A DNA stretch of 64,000 bases from the NCBI GenBank assembly GCA_018715595.1, contig DVLI01000026.1, positions 870-64,869 on the forward strand, given 5' to 3'. This DNA comes from Candidatus Caccoplasma merdavium. GTDB lineage: Bacteria > Bacteroidota > Bacteroidia > Bacteroidales > UBA11471. Of the stretch, positions 43,372 through 64,000 are shown piece after piece. The translations under genes were made by a program, and so were the position numbers. Each line of letters starts with the position of its first letter. Position 1 is the first letter of the stretch. The notes beneath the pieces were generated by a model. The model was not told where the DNA came from and did not search any database. It saw only the letters and a program-made list of their open reading frames with translations.

Positions 43372-43986
43372 ATGGAACAAGAAGATTTGCTCGCATACAA
43401 TACCCAAAAGAAAAAAATGGTCCTTCCCGAGTATGGACGTAACGTGCATCGCATGATTGAGTATTGCATGAGTCTCGAAGACCGAGACGAACGTACCCGT
43501 TGTGCCAATGCGATTGTGAACATCATGGGAAACCTCTTTCCCCATTTGCGCGACATCGACGATTTCAAGCACAAGTTGTGGGACCACTTGGCCATCATGT
43601 CCGATTTCAAACTCGACATCGATTATCCCTATGAGGTTATTCGCCAGGAGAAGCTTCACGACAAGCCCGAGAACGTGCCATACACCACCGGCAACATGCG
43701 CTATCGTCATTACGGCAAGTTGCTCGAACTGATGCTGCAAAAGTGGCAGGAAATGCCCGAGGGAGAGGAGAAAGACCAGTTGATCGTCTACTTGGCCAAT
43801 CACATGAAAAAAGCGCTCACTTCGTGGAACAAGGAGGCCGTCGATGATGAGAAAATCCTCAAAGACATCTTGGAATATACCCACCATGAAGTGCCGCTTA
43901 CCTTGGAACAACTTCACCTCAAAGAGGTACCCAAGGAAAATGTGCAGAGAAAAAATAAAAATAACGGAAGAAAAGCGGGACGATAA
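43372..43986 (+). CDS. DUF4290-like conserved hypothetical protein
   Basis: 204 aa. The motif PEYGRNVHRMIEY resembles the family found upstream of murA in Bacteroidetes (recalled, not searched). Confidence 0.6.
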   Translation: MEQEDLLAYNTQKKKMVLPEYGRNVHRMIEYCMSLEDRDERTRCANAIVNIMGNLFPHLRDIDDFKHKLWDHLAIMSDFKLDIDYPYEVIRQEKLHDKPENVPYTTGNMRYRHYGKLLELMLQKWQEMPEGEEKDQLIVYLANHMKKALTSWNKEAVDDEKILKDILEYTHHEVPLTLEQLHLKEVPKENVQRKNKNNGRKAGR

Positions 43987-44022
43987 CCGCTTTTTTTGTA
44001 TATTGAGCAAAAATTCTCTCAC

Positions 44023-45330
44023 ATGGCATCATTCGTTATAGAAGGCGGCCGCCGCATGCACGGCGAGCTGATACCGCAAGGCGCTAAAAACGAAGCCTTG
44101 CAGATATTGTGTGCTACGTTGCTCACCCCCGAGGCCGTAGAAGTGTATAACCTGCCCGACATTCTCGATGTCAACAACCTCATACAACTTCTCCGGGACT
44201 TGGGCGTGGAGACCACCAAGATAGGGGAGGGAGCCTATCGTTTCAAGGCCGAGAATATCGACTTGAATTATCTGCAAACGCCCCAGTTCCTCAAACAGAG
44301 CGCTTCGCTGCGCGGTTCGGTGATGATTGTGGGCCCGTTGGTAGCCCGTTTCGGGAAAGCCGTAATTGCCAAACCCGGTGGAGACAAAATCGGTCGCCGG
44401 CGTCTCGATACCCACTTCCTGGGAATTCAGAAATTGGGCGCCGAGTTTTCTTACAATCCCCAAAAACAGATTTATGAAATATCGGCCAAGGAACTCATCG
44501 GTACCTATATGTTGCTCGATGAGGCATCGGTCACCGGCACGGCCAATATCTTGATGGCGGCAGTGCTGGCCAAAGGGAAGACCACAATATACAATGCGGC
44601 TTGCGAGCCTTACCTGCAACAGCTCTCGAAGATGCTCAATGCCATGGGAGCCCACATATCGGGTATCGGTTCGAATCTGCTCGAAATCGAAGGCGTCGAG
44701 TCGCTCGGCGGTTGCAAACACACCATCTTGCCCGACATGATAGAGATAGGTTCCTTCATCGGCATGGCAGCCATGACCGGCTCCGACATACGTCTCAAAA
44801 ATGTATCGGTCAAGGATTTGGGTATCATACCCGACAGTTTCCGCCGACTTGGCATTCGTGTCGAGCAAGAAGGCGATGACCTTTACATACCGCAACAAGA
44901 CAGTTACGAAATAGAAACCTTCATCGACGGCTCCATCATGACCTTTGCCGATGCCCCCTGGCCGGGTCTTACGCCCGACCTCCTCAGTGTGTTCCTCGTG
45001 GTGGCCACGCAGGCCAAGGGCAGCGTGCTGATACACCAGAAGATGTTCGAGAGCCGCCTTTTCTTTGTCGACAAACTCATCGACATGGGGGCACAAATCA
45101 TTCTCTGCGATCCGCACCGTGCGGCCGTCATCGGCCAGGCCAAAGCCTATCCTTTGCGGGCTGCTTCCATGGTGTCGCCCGACATTCGTGCGGGCATTGC
45201 CCTGCTCATCGCCGCCATGTCGGCCGAGGGTACCAGCACGATACACAATATCGACCAAATCGACCGAGGATACCAGCGCATCGACCTGCGGCTCAACGCC
45301 ATAGGCGCTTCCATCACCCGTCAGTCCTGA
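44023..45330 (+). CDS. murA: UDP-N-acetylglucosamine 1-carboxyvinyltransferase
   Basis: The start is at MASFVIEGG. The active-site loop KPGGDKIGRRRLDTH has Asp where E. coli has Cys115. 435 aa. Confidence 0.92.
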   Translation: MASFVIEGGRRMHGELIPQGAKNEALQILCATLLTPEAVEVYNLPDILDVNNLIQLLRDLGVETTKIGEGAYRFKAENIDLNYLQTPQFLKQSASLRGSVMIVGPLVARFGKAVIAKPGGDKIGRRRLDTHFLGIQKLGAEFSYNPQKQIYEISAKELIGTYMLLDEASVTGTANILMAAVLAKGKTTIYNAACEPYLQQLSKMLNAMGAHISGIGSNLLEIEGVESLGGCKHTILPDMIEIGSFIGMAAMTGSDIRLKNVSVKDLGIIPDSFRRLGIRVEQEGDDLYIPQQDSYEIETFIDGSIMTFADAPWPGLTPDLLSVFLVVATQAKGSVLIHQKMFESRLFFVDKLIDMGAQIILCDPHRAAVIGQAKAYPLRAASMVSPDIRAGIALLIAAMSAEGTSTIHNIDQIDRGYQRIDLRLNAIGASITRQS

Positions 45331-59361: not shown

Positions 59362-60135
59362 TTACTTGATATTCTCCCGCATGGCGGTGAGGTATTGTTG
59401 CATGGCCGCACTGTCTTTGCGCGTGACGATGTCTTGTAGCTTGGCCAGATTTTCCTGAATCTTTTCCAGTTGCTCGCTGGTGTGCGGGTTGAAAAGAATT
59501 TCGGTAATCAGGTAATCATCTTCCGAGAAGAGGCCCCGGGCGATGTTCATGTGTTTCTTGAACGTGGTACCGGGAGCGTCCTGGTGCTTCATAATCGAGG
59601 CAAACACCATGGTCGAGGCAAACGGTATCGAGAGCGAGTAGGCTATCGTCTCGTCGTGCTGCTTGAAGGTGTACTCGAAGATGTTGAGATGCAGCCGGCT
59701 ATACAGGTCTTTGAAAAAGACTTTGCCCAAATGATTCGACTCGGTAATGATGATGGTGTTTTCCTCAGACAAGTTGCTCAGGTTGGCAAACGTGGGACCG
59801 AACATGGGGTGGGTCGACACAAACGGACGTTTCACCTTGGCATAGAACTCGGGCAGACCGGTTTTGACCGAGGCGATGTCCGATATGATGCAACTCTCGG
59901 GGATATGGGGCAAAACCGCTTCGAACGCCGGAATCGTGTATTTCACGGTGGCGGCGTTGATGAGCAGTTCGGGCTTGAACGCCTCGATTTCCTCCATCGT
60001 TGTCATGCGTTGGGTGTTGAAGGTGAAACGCAAGCGTTGAGGGTCGGTGTCGTATATGCCCACTTCGTGCTCGAAACTGAGTACATCGGCAAAGAACGAG
60101 CCCATTTTGCCGGCACCCAAAATCAATATCTTCAT
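59362..60135 (-). CDS. tyrA: Prephenate dehydrogenase
   Basis: The start is at MKILILGAGKMGSFF (Rossmann GxGxxG). It has the HPMFGP motif. It is the last gene of the aromatic operon. Confidence 0.85.
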   Translation of the reverse strand: MKILILGAGKMGSFFADVLSFEHEVGIYDTDPQRLRFTFNTQRMTTMEEIEAFKPELLINAATVKYTIPAFEAVLPHIPESCIISDIASVKTGLPEFYAKVKRPFVSTHPMFGPTFANLSNLSEENTIIITESNHLGKVFFKDLYSRLHLNIFEYTFKQHDETIAYSLSIPFASTMVFASIMKHQDAPGTTFKKHMNIARGLFSEDDYLITEILFNPHTSEQLEKIQENLAKLQDIVTRKDSAAMQQYLTAMRENIK

Positions 60136-60153
60136 TTTTCGGTTCCTTTTCAC

Positions 60154-61230
60154 TTATTTGTTGATGATGACCATTTGTTGGCGTATCGACTCTTCGTGGA
60201 TAGCCGCCAAGATGGTTTGCATAAATTCTCCGTCCATATCCATGTCCTGGGCTTGACTGACCCGTTTGCTGAGGATTTCGTCATATCGGGCTGTCTGCAA
60301 GACGGGCATGTCGTGTTCTTTCTTGTATTGGCCGATTTCGCGTGATACGCGCATGCGTTTGGCCAACAGGTCGAGCAGTTGGTTGTCGAGTTCGTCGATT
60401 TGACGGCGCAATTCGTTGAGGTTTTCTGTGCTTTGTGAGGTTTCGCGTACGATGAGCATGTCGAGAATGTAGGCTAATACATCGGGTTTTACTTGTTGTG
60501 AGGCGTCGCTCCATGCGTTGTCGGGGTTGCAGTGCGACTCGATGATGAGACCGTCGAATCCAAGGTCCATGGCCTGTTGGCTGAGCGGAGCGATGAGGTC
60601 TCTTTTCCCGCCGATGTGGCTGGGGTCGCAGATGATGGGCAGGTTGGGGAAACGCCGGCGCAACTCGATGGGAATGTGCCATTGCGGCAGGTTGCGGTAG
60701 ATGCGTTTGTCGTAGGCGCTGAACCCGCGGTGTATCACGCCGATTTTGCGGATACCGGCATTGTAGATGCGCTCTACTGCACCTATCCACAATTCGAGGT
60801 CGGGATTCACGGGATTTTTGATGAAGATGGGAATGTCGACTCCTTTCAGGGCATCGGCGATTTCCTGCATCGAGAAGGGGTTGGCCGCGGTGCGGGCTCC
60901 TATCCACAGAATGTCGACACCGTATTTGAGGGCTTCAAACACATGGTATTGGTTGGCCACTTCGGTGGCGACATACATGCCGGTTTCTTCTTTTACGCGT
61001 TTGAGCCAGGGTAGCCCCACGGTTCCCACGCCTTCGAATCCTCCCGGTTTGGTGCGAGGTTTCCATATCCCGGCACGGAATATCTTGATGCCTTGTGCGG
61101 CCAGCTGTTTGGCCGTTTCAAGTACTTGTTCTTCGGTTTCGGCACTGCATGGACCGGCAATGACGAGCGGGCGTTTGTTTTCGATTCCCGGTAAAGTAAT
61201 CGGTTCGAAATTCATGATTGTGTCAGCCAT
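60154..61230 (-). CDS. Bifunctional 3-deoxy-7-phosphoheptulonate synthase / chorismate mutase
   Basis: The start is at MADTIMNFEP (61230). It has a DAHPS I-beta core (PLVIAGPCSAE, CDPSHIGG). The C-terminal AroQ chorismate mutase segment reads LRRQIDELDNQLLDLLAKRMRVSREIGQYK. Confidence 0.88.
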   Translation of the reverse strand: MADTIMNFEPITLPGIENKRPLVIAGPCSAETEEQVLETAKQLAAQGIKIFRAGIWKPRTKPGGFEGVGTVGLPWLKRVKEETGMYVATEVANQYHVFEALKYGVDILWIGARTAANPFSMQEIADALKGVDIPIFIKNPVNPDLELWIGAVERIYNAGIRKIGVIHRGFSAYDKRIYRNLPQWHIPIELRRRFPNLPIICDPSHIGGKRDLIAPLSQQAMDLGFDGLIIESHCNPDNAWSDASQQVKPDVLAYILDMLIVRETSQSTENLNELRRQIDELDNQLLDLLAKRMRVSREIGQYKKEHDMPVLQTARYDEILSKRVSQAQDMDMDGEFMQTILAAIHEESIRQQMVIINK

Positions 61231-61249
61231 ATTTTTGATGTTTTTTTGA

Positions 61250-62446
61250 TTATTGACAAATGTGTTTTTTGATGCGTTCGAGCGATTCTTCCAGCTCCTT
61301 TTTGTCGGCACAGAGGGAGATGCGCACATAGCGCTCGCCTTGACTGCCGAATATGATGCCGGGCGTGATGAAGACGTGTGCATCGTAGAGTACCTTGTCG
61401 GCCAATTCGGTGCAACTGCTCATCGAGTCGGGTATTTTGGCCCAGAGGAACATGCCCCGTTGTCTGGGGTCGAACGTGCAACCCAGTGACTTGGCAATCT
61501 GTTCGGCTATCACACGGCGTTCGCGGTAGACGATGTTGTTGCCTTCATACCACGAAGCGGGCAGTGACAGCGAGTGGGCGGCTGCTTCTTGCATGGGACG
61601 GAACGTCCCCGAGTCGATATTGCTCTTGACCCGTAACACCCACGATACGAATTGGGCGTTCGAGGCCAGCATGCCCACGCGCCAACCCGGCATGTTGTGC
61701 GATTTGCTCATCGAGTTCATTTCGATGCAAATATCTTTGGCACCCGGTACCGAGAGCAGGCTCAGCGGCGTGTCGTTGAGGATGAAACTGTATGGGTTGT
61801 CGTTGACGATGATGATGCTGTGGCGCATGCCGAAGTCGACCAGCTTTTCGAACAGCTCGCGAGAGGCCGGAGCTCCGGTCGGCATGTGCGGATAGTTGAC
61901 CCACATAAGTTTTACGCCCGAGAGGTCGCATTTTTCGAGGGCTTCGAAGTCGGGCTGCCAGCCGTTCTCTTCGCGCAGCTCGTAGGGAATGATGCGGGCT
62001 TCGGCCAAGCGGCTCACCGAGGTGTAGGTGGGGTAGCCGGGGTTGGGTACCAGCACGCTGTCGCCGGGGTTGAGAAATGCCAGGGAGATGTGCAGAATAC
62101 CCTCTTTTGAACCGATGAGCGGTTGTATCTCGGTCGCCGGGTCGAGCTCTACGTCATACCATCTCTTATACCAGTCGGCAAATGCCTTTCGCAGTTCGGG
62201 AATACCCACATAGGGTTGGTAGCCGTGGGTATTGTCTTTGCGGCTCTCGCGGCAGAGTGTCTCTATCGTTTCGGGGTGGGGCGGACGGTCGGGACTGCCG
62301 ATGCCGAGACTGATGACATTCAGCCCCCGGGCATTCATCTCGGCGACTTCTTTCAATTTTTTCGAAAAGTAGTATTCGCTGACCTGGTTCACCCGATTGG
62401 CCGGTGTGATGTTACAGGTTGTTTTTTGATTCGGCATATTCTCCAA
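61250..62446 (-). CDS. Class I/II PLP-dependent aminotransferase (probable aromatic/prephenate aminotransferase)
   Basis: It has the PLP-lysine context SMSKSHNMPGWRVG and an NPGYPTY motif. It sits between pheA and DAHPS/CM. Its start overlaps the pheA stop by about 26-35 nt. Confidence 0.82.
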   Translation of the reverse strand: MENMPNQKTTCNITPANRVNQVSEYYFSKKLKEVAEMNARGLNVISLGIGSPDRPPHPETIETLCRESRKDNTHGYQPYVGIPELRKAFADWYKRWYDVELDPATEIQPLIGSKEGILHISLAFLNPGDSVLVPNPGYPTYTSVSRLAEARIIPYELREENGWQPDFEALEKCDLSGVKLMWVNYPHMPTGAPASRELFEKLVDFGMRHSIIIVNDNPYSFILNDTPLSLLSVPGAKDICIEMNSMSKSHNMPGWRVGMLASNAQFVSWVLRVKSNIDSGTFRPMQEAAAHSLSLPASWYEGNNIVYRERRVIAEQIAKSLGCTFDPRQRGMFLWAKIPDSMSSCTELADKVLYDAHVFITPGIIFGSQGERYVRISLCADKKELEESLERIKKHICQ

Positions 62447-63254
62447 GTATTTTAAGTTCTTTGATCAGGGGGGTGATGGCATCGACGGCCTGGCGATAAC
62501 GCAGGCGGTCTTCATACACGACATCGATGTAGAATTGGTATTCCCATTCACGACCGATGATGGGCAGCGACTGTATTTTGGTCAAATTCATTTTATAGAA
62601 CGACAGTATCGAGAGCACTTGTGACAGGCTGCCTTCGGTGTGCGGTAGGGTAAATACGAGACTGGCTTTGTTGCAAATCTTATCCTTGCGCAACTCGTCG
62701 GCATGCCAGCGGTTGGCGATGACCAGGAAACGGGTGGAGTTGTGTTTGTTGGTTTCGATGCCTTCTTCCAAGATTTTCAGGCCATACATGGCGGCCACGT
62801 CTTTCCCGCAAATGGCGGCGTGCCCGTGAAGTTTGTTCTTGAAGATGTCTTCGGCACTTTTGGCCGTGTCTTCGGCCTCCACGGCTTTTATCTCGGGGTG
62901 GGCATTGAGGAATTCCCGGCACTGCATGAGGGCGATGGGGTGGGAGCTGACTTCGTGAATGTCTTTCCAGTCATCTTCGGGCAGACACATGATAGAGTGC
63001 GAGATGTGCAACCGGGCTTCCCCTATGATTTGCGAATCGCTTTCGCGCAGCAGTTCGTGGTTTTGCAGCAAGCTGCCGGCAATGGTGTTTTCGATGGCCA
63101 TCAGGCCGATGACCGTGTCGTCTTTCTTTATGGCGGTGAAAATGTCCTCGAAGCGGGCACAATAGAGAATTTCTATTTCTTCTCCGGCAAAGTAGCGATG
63201 AGCGGTTATATCGTGAAAGGACCCTTTGGCTCCTTGTATGGCTATGCGTTTCAT
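62412..63254 (-). CDS. pheA: Prephenate dehydratase
   Basis: It has IAIQGAKGSFH, NSTRFLVI and a C-terminal ACT domain (SLVFTLPHTEGSLSQVL). 280 aa. Confidence 0.9.
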   Translation of the reverse strand: MKRIAIQGAKGSFHDITAHRYFAGEEIEILYCARFEDIFTAIKKDDTVIGLMAIENTIAGSLLQNHELLRESDSQIIGEARLHISHSIMCLPEDDWKDIHEVSSHPIALMQCREFLNAHPEIKAVEAEDTAKSAEDIFKNKLHGHAAICGKDVAAMYGLKILEEGIETNKHNSTRFLVIANRWHADELRKDKICNKASLVFTLPHTEGSLSQVLSILSFYKMNLTKIQSLPIIGREWEYQFYIDVVYEDRLRYRQAVDAITPLIKELKILGEYAESKNNL

Positions 63255-63273
63255 AATCTGTGTTTTTGGTCGT

Positions 63274-63310
63274 AAAAAAAATTCCCACTCTTCCGTGTCA
63301 GAAGGTGGGA
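63274..63310 (-). terminator. Attenuator terminator 2 (directly upstream of pheA)
   Basis: On the minus strand the hairpin reads TCCCACCTTC-tgacacg-GAAGAGTGGGA (10 bp with one bulge), then A and U8. It ends 19 nt before the pheA ATG. Confidence 0.7.
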
Positions 63311-63420
63311 TAACATATCATCGAGCTTTTGAGGCATGTGCGATTGCCTCCCACCTTGACGCATTGGTGCATAAAGTAGAAAAAATAAAAGCCGTAAAAT
63401 CGTACAAATAAATTTTTCAT
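63298..63420 (-). CDS. Candidate leader peptide 2 (MKNLFVRFYGFYFFYFMHQ..., 40 codons)
   Basis: 9 of the first 16 codons are Phe or Tyr. The ORF runs through the anti-terminator segment AAGGTGGGA (63357..63349). It stops (TGA) in the terminator loop. Confidence 0.5.
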   Translation of the reverse strand: MKNLFVRFYGFYFFYFMHQCVKVGGNRTCLKSSMICYPTF

Positions 63421-63433
63421 ATTTCCGTATATT

Positions 63434-63460
63434 AAAAAATCCCGTCTTGTGAACGGGATT
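63434..63460 (-). terminator. Attenuator terminator 1
   Basis: On the minus strand the hairpin reads AATCCCGT-tcacaag-ACGGGATT and runs into U6. No coding gene lies upstream on this strand. Confidence 0.7.
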
Positions 63461-63500
63461 TCTTTATTTCGTAAATTGTCAGCCATACAGAATCCCGTTT

Positions 63501-63557
63501 TTACTTATTGTTAAAGTAAAAATAGAAAAAATAGGTATGACCAAAACAATGTTTCAT
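63501..63557 (-). CDS. Candidate leader peptide 1 (MKHCFGHTYFFYFYFNNK)
   Basis: It is an 18-codon ORF in which 8 codons are Phe or Tyr, seven of them consecutive. The TAA stop abuts the anti-terminator arm AACGGGATT (63499..63491). Confidence 0.6.
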   Translation of the reverse strand: MKHCFGHTYFFYFYFNNK

Positions 63558-63580
63558 TTCGTTTGTCTTTAATACGGCAA

Positions 63581-63588
63581 CAAAGATA
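63581..63588 (-). promoter_or_regulatory. -7 promoter box TAtcTTTG for the pheA operon leader
   Basis: The reverse complement of caaagata is an exact TAnnTTTG match. It lies 23 nt upstream of the leader-1 ATG. Confidence 0.5.
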
Positions 63589-63758
63589 TGAAAAAGTAGG
63601 AAAAGAAAAAAGTATTTTGCGATTTTTTTTGTCAAAAAGAAAAATAAAACTTCGTCCTGTGGTAAAACTGTAAAACGAAACGCGAAAATTCTGCCTATTT
63701 TCCTTCCGTGGCCATAAGCCCCTTTTGTCGCAAATAGGTTTGTATCGCAGAATATGCG

Positions 63759-63766
63759 TATATTTG
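63759..63766 (+). promoter_or_regulatory. -7 promoter box TAtaTTTG for mscL
   Basis: Exact TAnnTTTG match, 23 nt upstream of the ATG at 63790. Confidence 0.5.
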
Positions 63767-63789: not shown

Positions 63790-64000
63790 TGAAAAAATTT
63801 CTTCAAGAGTTCAAAACATTCGCCATGCGGGGAAATGTAATCGACATGGCTGTCGGCGTCATTATAGGAGGAGCTTTCGGCAAGATTGTCTCTTCATTGG
63901 TTTCCGATATCATCATGCCGCTCATCGGAGTGCTCATCGGCGGGGTCGATTTCCAAAATTTGAAGTGGACTTTTCGCTCCCCTTCCATGGGAGAGGGAAT
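63790..64000 (+). CDS. mscL: Large-conductance mechanosensitive channel MscL, 3'-truncated by window edge
   Basis: My own translation gives [52 protein letters not shown]..., which matches the MscL N-terminal/TM1 signature. It is absent from the ORF track because no stop lies within the window. Confidence 0.88.

Follow-up and report, generated by a model that had tools for sequence, protein, structure and literature searches.

The 64,000-nt stretch of DNA analysed here (hereafter the window) comes from Candidatus Caccoplasma merdavium (contig DVLI01000026.1, positions 870 to 64,869) and carries on its minus strand, close to the right-hand end, a gene for prephenate dehydratase (pheA) followed by genes for an aminotransferase, a fused DAHP synthase/chorismate mutase and prephenate dehydrogenase (tyrA). 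Our subject is the leader region that precedes pheA. A first-pass annotation had placed two complete phenylalanine/tyrosine (Phe/Tyr) leader-peptide attenuators there, one behind the other, and reading the minus strand together with the list of open reading frames (ORFs) reproduced every coordinate and sequence of both modules (Table 1). As set out below, both modules belong to a leader family found throughout the Bacteroidales, and the pair would probably act as two transcription checkpoints in series.

Table 1. Features of the pheA leader, the putative operon behind it and the neighbouring gene, in coordinates of the window.
Feature	Position	Strand	Sequence, support or remark
pheA leader region: two putative leader-peptide attenuator modules behind one promoter box, 5′ of the pheA ATG (63254)	63590..63255	minus	
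Putative Bacteroidetes-type −7 promoter box (TAnnTTTG)	63588..63581	minus	TATCTTTG; promoter activity predicted from the motif
Leader ORF 1, 18 codons + TAA	63557..63501	minus	MKHCFGHTYFFYFYFNNK; sequence reading, ORF list
Module 1 regulatory codons 9-15 (YFFYFYF)	63533..63513	minus	17/21 positions invariant in the clade
Module 1 region 2, anti-terminator 5′ arm	63499..63491	minus	AACGGGATT (RNA AACGGGAUU); one base after the TAA
Terminator 1	63460..63434	minus	AATCCCGT-tcacaag-ACGGGATT + U6 (RNA AAUCCCGU-ucacaag-ACGGGAUU); 5′ arm 63460..63452 = region 3
Leader ORF 2, 40 codons + TGA	63420..63298	minus	MKNLFVRFYGFYFFYFMHQCVKVGGNRTCLKSSMICYPTF (start MKNLFVRFYGFYFFYF, MKNLFVRFYGFYFFYFMHQ); sequence reading, ORF list
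Module 2 regulatory codons 8-16 (FYGFYFFYF)	63399..63373	minus	21/27 positions invariant in the clade
Module 2 region 2, anti-terminator 5′ arm	63357..63349	minus	AAGGTGGGA (RNA AAGGUGGGA); invariant in all tandem relatives
Small hairpin GAGGC-aaucgcacau-GCCUC	63350..63331	minus	in minimum-energy folds; overlaps the 3′ end of module 2 region 2
Terminator 2	63310..63274	minus	TCCCACCTTC-tgacacg-GAAGAGTGGGA, then A + U8; 10 bp, one bulged A; 5′ arm 63310..63302 = region 3
Prephenate dehydratase (pheA)	62412..63254	minus	NCBIfam match
Aminotransferase (class I/II)	61250..62446	minus	NCBIfam match
DAHP synthase/chorismate mutase (fused)	60154..about 61230	minus	NCBIfam match
Prephenate dehydrogenase (tyrA)	59362..60153	minus	NCBIfam match
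Putative regulated operon, four genes	59362..63254	minus	NCBIfam models
mscL, 5′ part, divergent, runs off the window	63791..64000	plus	NCBIfam MscL, E 1e-31; bounds the leader region

Two modules in the pheA leader

The first leader ORF devotes eight of its 18 codons to Phe or Tyr (5 Phe and 3 Tyr), seven of them consecutive, and this short 18-residue type of leader is also seen in many other Bacteroidales. Region 2 of module 1 is a perfect 9-nt complement of region 3, AATCCCGTT, which doubles as the 5′ arm of terminator 1; the predicted energies are −12.8 kcal/mol for the duplex of regions 2 and 3 and −13.8 kcal/mol for the terminator hairpin, which aligns to the family terminator in the covariance-model match described below. 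When the free RNA is folded, a part of the regulatory codons, UUUUUACUU, pairs with AAGUAAAAA to give a hairpin between regions 1 and 2 (the 1:2 hairpin).

Module 2 repeats this plan. Its ORF begins 13 nt past the U-run of terminator 1 (63434) and uses Phe or Tyr codons at nine of its first 16 positions (6 Phe and 3 Tyr). Region 2 is again a perfect complement of region 3, TCCCACCTT, with a duplex energy of −15.9 kcal/mol, and terminator 2, as RNA UCCCACCUUC-ugacacg-GAAG(A)GUGGGA, reaches −16.6 kcal/mol. The bulged base of this terminator is A or C among the relatives, and its U-tract ends 19 nt 5′ of the pheA ATG. A small GAGGC/GCCUC hairpin, whose stem is invariant and whose loop is variable across the tandem clade, may compete with the module 2 anti-terminator.

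The second ORF had been singled out as odd, in that it reads through its own anti-terminator and stops in the terminator. Indeed, it extends about 24 codons beyond its run of Phe and Tyr codons, and its TGA (63300..63298) sits in the loop of terminator 2. This feature turned out to be conserved in kind across the tandem relatives introduced below, whose ORF2 has 36-40 codons, while the exact stop varies: it lies in the terminator loop in the window and at loci L001, L002, L081 and L083, and immediately 5′ of the terminator arm at L003 and L089. At L083 the ORF is frame-shifted after the Phe/Tyr run, yet ends at the equivalent place; since the frame differs, the extension appears to be kept as RNA rather than as peptide. 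Only the extra length of ORF2 is special, given that reading through region 2 itself is the commoner form in the family. An in-frame upstream ATG at 63486 (minus strand) would lengthen ORF2 to 62 codons, which would include terminator 1. The window, L001, L002 and L088 have this ATG, and L003, L081, L083 and L089 lack it. As it falls within GUAUGG, a conserved strand of the outer 1:2 helix, the extension looks incidental.

Upstream of both modules, TATCTTTG is the sole TAnnTTTG on the minus strand of the pheA intergenic region, where about 0.2 would be expected from the 48 such motifs in 128 kb (both strands). The box is kept in seven tandem relatives with seven of its eight positions invariant and one change, at an ‘n’ position. 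No TAnnTTTG that might mark another promoter was found between the modules, which are separated by no ORF besides the leader ORFs; the minus strand of this region has the one box. We infer that both lie on one transcript, as a tandem of complete sensor-plus-terminator units.

Such an arrangement is conspicuous against the rest of the window. Among its 1323 ATG-started ORFs of 10-70 residues, three contain at least six Phe or Tyr per 10 residues, namely ORF1, ORF2 and one unrelated ORF. In addition, the fold of the 321-nt leader has a z-score of −6.4 relative to dinucleotide shuffles, and both terminator hairpins are part of the minimum-energy fold. A simple terminator scan missed both of these minus-strand hairpins: its rules forbid bulges, and the stem of terminator 1 enters its own U-tract. 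The terminators were therefore assessed by folding, and an RNAfold-based hairpin search was used for the leaders of relatives. The third Phe/Tyr-rich ORF, MMPCERIFAQYTKKAVIVPLFFRYFYFFSAHFPWVPL, starts at 44032 (minus strand), and a weak plus-strand match to the leader model lies nearby at 43886..44002 (15.3 bits, E 0.83). We consider this ORF a product of chance: it lies across a terminator-like hairpin (AAAAAAAGCGG...CCGCTTTTCTT) flanked by long ORFs and lacks the parts of an attenuator.

A family of single-module leaders in the Bacteroidales

To place the two modules, PheA relatives were scanned in one genome per species, yielding 80 loci. An ATG-started mini-ORF with a run of Phe and Tyr codons is found 145-265 nt 5′ of pheA in about 74 of them. 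Most of the remaining loci have too little upstream sequence, and the model described below still finds the module at L008 and L075 and at the cut-off loci L039 and L040. Wherever the sequence available 5′ of pheA is long enough, one module or more is present, in Bacteroides, Phocaeicola, Prevotella, Paraprevotella and Mediterranea alike; illustrative examples from among L005-L080 are L019:2326-2486, L033:2329-2488 and L074:2338-2481. The leader ORF takes two forms: one of 18 codons, which stops at the start of region 2, and one of 27-31 codons, which runs through region 2 (...YFYFSNKVKREFVCVR) and is the commoner of the two. Nearly all family leaders have a strong hairpin with a U-tract 7-41 nt 5′ of pheA. 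The predicted Phe/Tyr leader is thus close to universal 5′ of pheA in gut Bacteroidales, and a single module is ordinary and widespread there, if uncurated.

An alignment of 69 distinct single-module pheA leaders of Bacteroidales, from which the clade of the window was excluded (alignment A1), contains four conserved blocks, UUUUACUUUUACUUU, GAAGCGGGA, UCCCGCUUC and GAAGCGGGAUUUUU, and spacers between regions 2 and 3 that are conserved neither in length nor in sequence. The RNAalifold consensus for this alignment is the anti-terminator, with 93% of cells paired, none of 500 shuffles reaching the observed score and slid controls that pair at most 51%; its column pair 78:174 is AU in 33 leaders and GC in 28. 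The terminator helix is paired in 91.5% of cells, with compensatory changes at 166:198 (AU in 44, GC in 20) and 174:190 (UA in 27, CG in 15). The outer 1:2 helix has 64% of cells paired and weaker compensatory support. For these latter two helices the controls were run jointly, with none of 500 shuffles reaching the score and slid controls at no more than 55%. An alignment of leaders 5′ of pheA orthologues had been suggested as a check, and in it the Phe/Tyr mini-ORFs are conserved and both helices of the switch show compensatory changes.

Next, a covariance model built from alignment A1 (model R1), and hence blind to the clade of the window, was searched against all 64 kb. On the minus strand it matches modules 1 and 2 and nothing else. 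Both matches span the full model (positions 1-160), and they lie 8 nt apart: module 1 at 63557..63428 with 69.1 bits (E 5.4e-13) and module 2 at 63420..63273 with 30.2 bits (E 3.5e-4). A plus-strand match of 21.9 bits is the palindromic terminator 1 read in reverse. The proposal that each module combines a Phe/Tyr ORF, an anti-terminator and an intrinsic terminator is supported: R1 matches both modules and the family helices carry compensatory changes.

The modules differ in their matched triple of regions 2, 3 and 4, which reads ACGGGAUU / AAUCCCGU / ACGGGAUU in module 1 and GGUGGGA / UCCCACC / GUGGGA in module 2. Where all 69 family members have a C:G pair, the anti-terminator of module 2 has U:A and its terminator A:U, and L083 shows the intermediate state, with a wobble pair in both helices. 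Such a change on three strands is what a mutually exclusive switch predicts. Duplexes within modules have energies of −12.8 to −16.0 kcal/mol versus −6.7 to −8.5 kcal/mol across modules, and being about twice as stable they would leave the modules largely insulated from each other.

Comparison with Rfam (Rfam 15) returned no family at threshold, either in the window leader, searched permissively, or in seven related loci, searched at gathering thresholds. Phe_leader (RF01859) aligned to 63431..63548 with 19.9 bits (E 1.7), below its gathering score of 55, and the sub-threshold matches that span the architecture of module 1 are solely the Thr, Phe and Trp leaders. The Bacteroidales leader family itself is absent from Rfam 15.

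Distribution and setting of the tandem

Two modules in series had struck the first-pass annotation as unusual, and so they are. Among the 80 species-level loci they occur at L001-L003 only, where PheA is 90-92% identical to that of the window; the closest genome is Candidatus Caccoplasma intestinavium (92%). Adding intermediate relatives, through a search of a large protein collection and the corresponding contigs, brought the set to about 90 loci and revealed further pairs at L081/L082 (PheA 85% identical), L083 (84%), L089/L090 (89-90%), L085 and L088. Across all of these loci, the tandem is restricted to the window's own clade, Candidatus Caccoplasma and relatives with PheA 77-99% identical. 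Three loci with PheA 83-84% identical (L004, L084 and L087) have one module, of the module-1 type, directly 5′ of pheA. A neighbour-joining PheA tree, computed without support values, unites all of these tandem and single-module loci in a monophyletic group, within which the single-module loci cluster as a nested subclade; the history that needs the fewest events has a single gain and a single loss. As for its source, module 2 shares 64% identity with module 1 and 66-72% with other members of the family, values from which neither a recent duplication nor a specific donor lineage can be assigned.

The tandem has been kept in lineages with PheA 84-92% identical to that of the window. When seven independent tandem leaders are compared, invariant positions make up 82% of the predicted elements (111 of 136) and 23% of the rest (46 of 200; Fisher p = 2.5e-27), and module 2 is constrained as strongly as module 1. 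From this comparison of sequences, the tandem is a clade-specific arrangement and is under purifying selection on both modules. L085 and L088 were not counted among the independent leaders. The leader of L085 (1-2135) is nearly identical to that of L003, yet its PheA is 77% identical to the window's; likewise, the leader of L088 (1-1977) is nearly identical to that of the window, yet its PheA is 81% identical. This mismatch could be due to recombination at the leader/pheA boundary, to chimeric assembly or to low-coverage error (the coverage of L085 is 1.3).

Downstream of the leader, the four ORFs match the corresponding NCBIfam models, in agreement with the operon content annotated at the outset. 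All scores fall under the curated equivalog cut-offs, so the genes are named at family level rather than by exact assignment. The order pheA-aminotransferase is kept in relatives. With its listed TTG start at 62446, the aminotransferase ORF shares 35 nt with the 3′ end of pheA (62412..62446), and the called genes in relatives overlap by 26 nt (e.g., L081: 1721 vs 1746), which suggests either translational coupling or a true start further on. On the other side, the neighbour is the divergent mscL, and MscL is called at the equivalent place in L089 and L090. With this neighbour, neither terminator can serve an upstream gene on the same strand, as had been argued for the window. The mscL gene shares the intergenic region with the pheA leader, and 25-55 nt 5′ of its start (near 63791) are two plus-strand TAnnTTTG boxes, TAGGTTTG and TATATTTG, at 63735..63742 and 63759..63766; these are likely candidates for mscL promoters.

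Proposed mechanism, alternatives and significance

Equilibrium folds of complete modules are uninformative for a kinetic switch, which is why we folded the nascent RNA, up to the start of region 4, with a mask of 28 nt around each codon that a ribosome might hold in its aminoacyl site (A-site). With the A-site at codons 3-16 of ORF1, which include all Phe and Tyr codons, the anti-terminator of module 1 forms with a probability of 1.0; with the ribosome over region 2, at codon 18 or at the stop, the probability is 0. For module 2 the corresponding values are 0.84-1.0 at codons 7-18 (including the Phe/Tyr codons 8-16) and 0 at codons 20-28. In these models, then, both modules follow the classical attenuation logic, and folding with a ribosome mask, another check that had been suggested, gives the predicted outcome for each: a stall frees region 2, and a ribosome that has moved on covers it. 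The geometry of module 2 differs in that the ribosome proceeds to the terminator rather than stopping near region 2. In free RNA the 1:2 hairpin is part of the minimum-energy folds, and untranslated nascent RNA forms the anti-terminator with a probability of 0.98 in module 1 and 0.67 in module 2.

The reading that we consider likely is that one promoter drives a leader of about 320 nt with two serial ribosome-mediated attenuators, both of which sense charged tRNA-Phe and tRNA-Tyr. A ribosome stalled at the Phe/Tyr codons would cover region 1 and leave region 2 free to form the 2:3 anti-terminator, and RNA polymerase would continue; an unstalled ribosome would move onto region 2, allowing the 3:4 hairpin and its U-tract to end transcription. 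Polymerase would have to pass both checkpoints before reaching pheA, such that read-through would be the product of two Phe/Tyr-dependent probabilities, with lower basal expression (leak) and a sharper response as the expected consequences. From the sequence we infer actual termination, a response to Phe and Tyr and multiplicative action. The codon mix is equal in both ORFs, which argues for one signal rather than a division of labour, and it fits an operon that encodes both prephenate dehydratase and prephenate dehydrogenase, as the first-pass annotation had pointed out.

Several observations weigh against this reading. Module 2 scores much lower than module 1 against R1 (30 vs 69 bits) and was lost in the nested subclade of L004, L084 and L087, and is hence dispensable. 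The outer 1:2 helix is paired in just 64% of family cells, and the paired segments are almost invariant within the tandem clade, so that the covariation comes mostly from the wider family. The folding models add three further points. Untranslated nascent RNA of module 1 also prefers the anti-terminator; full-length RNA at equilibrium always prefers the terminator, masked or not, so that the switch would depend on kinetics; and a closely following ribosome would cover region 3 from codon 34 of ORF2 onward and thereby prevent termination whatever the supply of Phe and Tyr.

Some of these points feed directly into alternatives. If module 1 alone sensed Phe and Tyr, module 2 might be a copy in decay or put to another use, terminating a constant share of transcripts or having no effect, in keeping with its weak match to R1, an ORF that lacks the usual stop and runs to the terminator, and a subclade that cleanly lost module 2 and retained the module-1 type only. 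We find this doubtful: the Phe/Tyr run, regions 2-4 and the U-tract have changed as little in module 2 as in module 1, in contrast to the freely varying loops and spacers of module 2, the departure of its matched triple from the family consensus needs coordinated changes, and a stall at the Phe/Tyr codons of ORF2 yields the anti-terminator in the nascent-RNA fold. A different role for module 2 is suggested by its long ORF, full translation of which would mask region 3: it may report whether translation keeps pace with transcription, and not (only) the supply of Phe and Tyr. With the A-site at codon 34 or beyond, neither anti-terminator nor terminator can form, and the stop lies in the loop or just 5′ of the terminator arm in every tandem lineage, including the frame-shifted L083. 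Everything here hinges on distance, in that ribosomes close behind the polymerase would let full translation of ORF2 suppress terminator 2, and a lag of about 70-100 nt would put the decision earlier and make the extension irrelevant. Such pace reporting is quite unlikely to be what module 2 does, since it would need neither the Phe/Tyr run nor the anti-terminator arm, yet both are strictly conserved; moreover, some 24 AT-rich codons without a stop are not especially improbable, and the lineages do not count as independent.

That the leader is sensed by something other than a ribosome, for instance as a riboswitch, through a T-box-like tRNA contact or by an RNA-binding protein, with the Phe/Tyr ORFs incidental, would be in keeping with the spacer hairpins, which are present in the leader without an assigned role. 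This we hold to be very improbable, with no Rfam family at threshold and only leader-peptide families (Thr, Phe, Trp) among the sub-threshold matches that share the architecture. The ATG-started ORF keeps its Phe/Tyr run in some 74 of the 80 loci while its remaining codons vary, and the free variation of the spacers between regions 2 and 3 argues against ligand, tRNA or protein sensing. Chance resemblance is the last alternative, as T-rich intergenic DNA readily encodes Phe and an unrelated Phe/Tyr-rich ORF does occur at 44032; it is effectively refuted by the E-values of R1 and the conservation contrast, and the covariation and the z-score of the leader fold speak against it as well.

Serial attenuation by leader peptides would combine a known mechanism with a new arrangement. 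Leader-peptide attenuation is a textbook mechanism, characterised almost only in Proteobacteria. Attenuators in Bacteroidetes were reportedly predicted by Vitreschak et al. in 2004. Like Escherichia coli pheL-pheA (RF01859), trpL and thrL, each module combines a terminator, an anti-terminator built on the 5′ arm of that terminator and a short ORF with a run of cognate codons, and as in pheL and trpL the stop codon of module 1 lies at the start of region 2. The window leader differs from these systems in scoring below the Phe_leader threshold, in mixing Phe with Tyr codons, in having two modules in series and in a host phylum that is not known to use Shine-Dalgarno-led initiation. With the single-module Bacteroidales pheA leaders it shares the architecture and the motifs UUUUACUUUUACUUU, GAAGCGGGA, UCCCGCUUC and GAAGCGGGAUUUUU, differing from them in its second module, the changed triple of that module and an ORF of 36-40 codons instead of 18 or 27-31. 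In the same phylum, the transcriptome of Flavobacterium psychrophilum gave strong clues of leader-peptide attenuation ahead of amino-acid operons and showed a 5′ element without Rfam hits that is conserved before pheA in Flavobacterium (PMC9723704). The transcriptome map of Bacteroides thetaiotaomicron mentions leader-like small ORFs in general terms only, and its supplements contain no FYFYF peptide and no prephenate dehydratase entry.

As to doubling, tandem riboswitches and tandem T-boxes that sense one ligand exist. Among leader peptides, a parallel is the Salmonella mgtCBR leader, where two short ORFs, mgtM and mgtP, answer different signals (PMC3641672). There, too, one leader holds two short ORFs that each control alternative stem-loops gating transcription into the coding region; unlike the mgtCBR ORFs, which are unrelated in sequence, the modules of the window are homologous, have the same codon mix and each end in a canonical intrinsic terminator. 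Tandem terminators are known from the rimP leader (PMC2965389), and tandem pT181 attenuators have been built synthetically (bioRxiv 10.1101/003335). Common to these last two cases, to tandem riboswitches and T-boxes and to the window are serial sensor-plus-terminator units in one 5′ leader, with lower leak and a steeper response expected. In the window, unlike in tandem riboswitches, T-boxes and pT181, the proposed sensor is a translating ribosome and not an aptamer, a tRNA contact or an antisense RNA. Our search for tandem leader-peptide attenuators of amino-acid operons in the literature found only mgtCBR, two erm leader peptides, the rimP terminators and the synthetic constructs. The same search, whose incomplete coverage makes this no proof of absence, turned up no amino-acid operon with two homologous leader-peptide attenuators for one signal in series. 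The mechanism predicted from the sequence is known and widespread; its doubling is lineage-specific and, as a same-signal tandem, new.

One could go further and see here the first natural pair of homologous, same-signal, ribosome-mediated attenuators to be placed in series before amino-acid biosynthesis genes, a pair that selection has preserved throughout a genus-level clade and that has diverged into insulated pairing sets, with ORF2 deliberately extended so that module 2 reads both tRNA charging and the distance between ribosome and polymerase. In this full form we consider the proposal unlikely; if true, the cell would carry in module 2 its own probe of how transcription and translation are coupled, a subject unstudied in this phylum, and even by itself an ORF2 long enough to end in its terminator could reveal the ribosome-RNA polymerase distance in Bacteroidota. 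Close relatives with one and with two modules offer a natural experiment on whether serial attenuators multiply repression and sharpen the response, an effect demonstrated with synthetic tandem attenuators and suggested for tandem riboswitches. For the order as a whole, the Bacteroidales pheA leader is a candidate for a new curated family, which would improve the annotation of many gut genomes.

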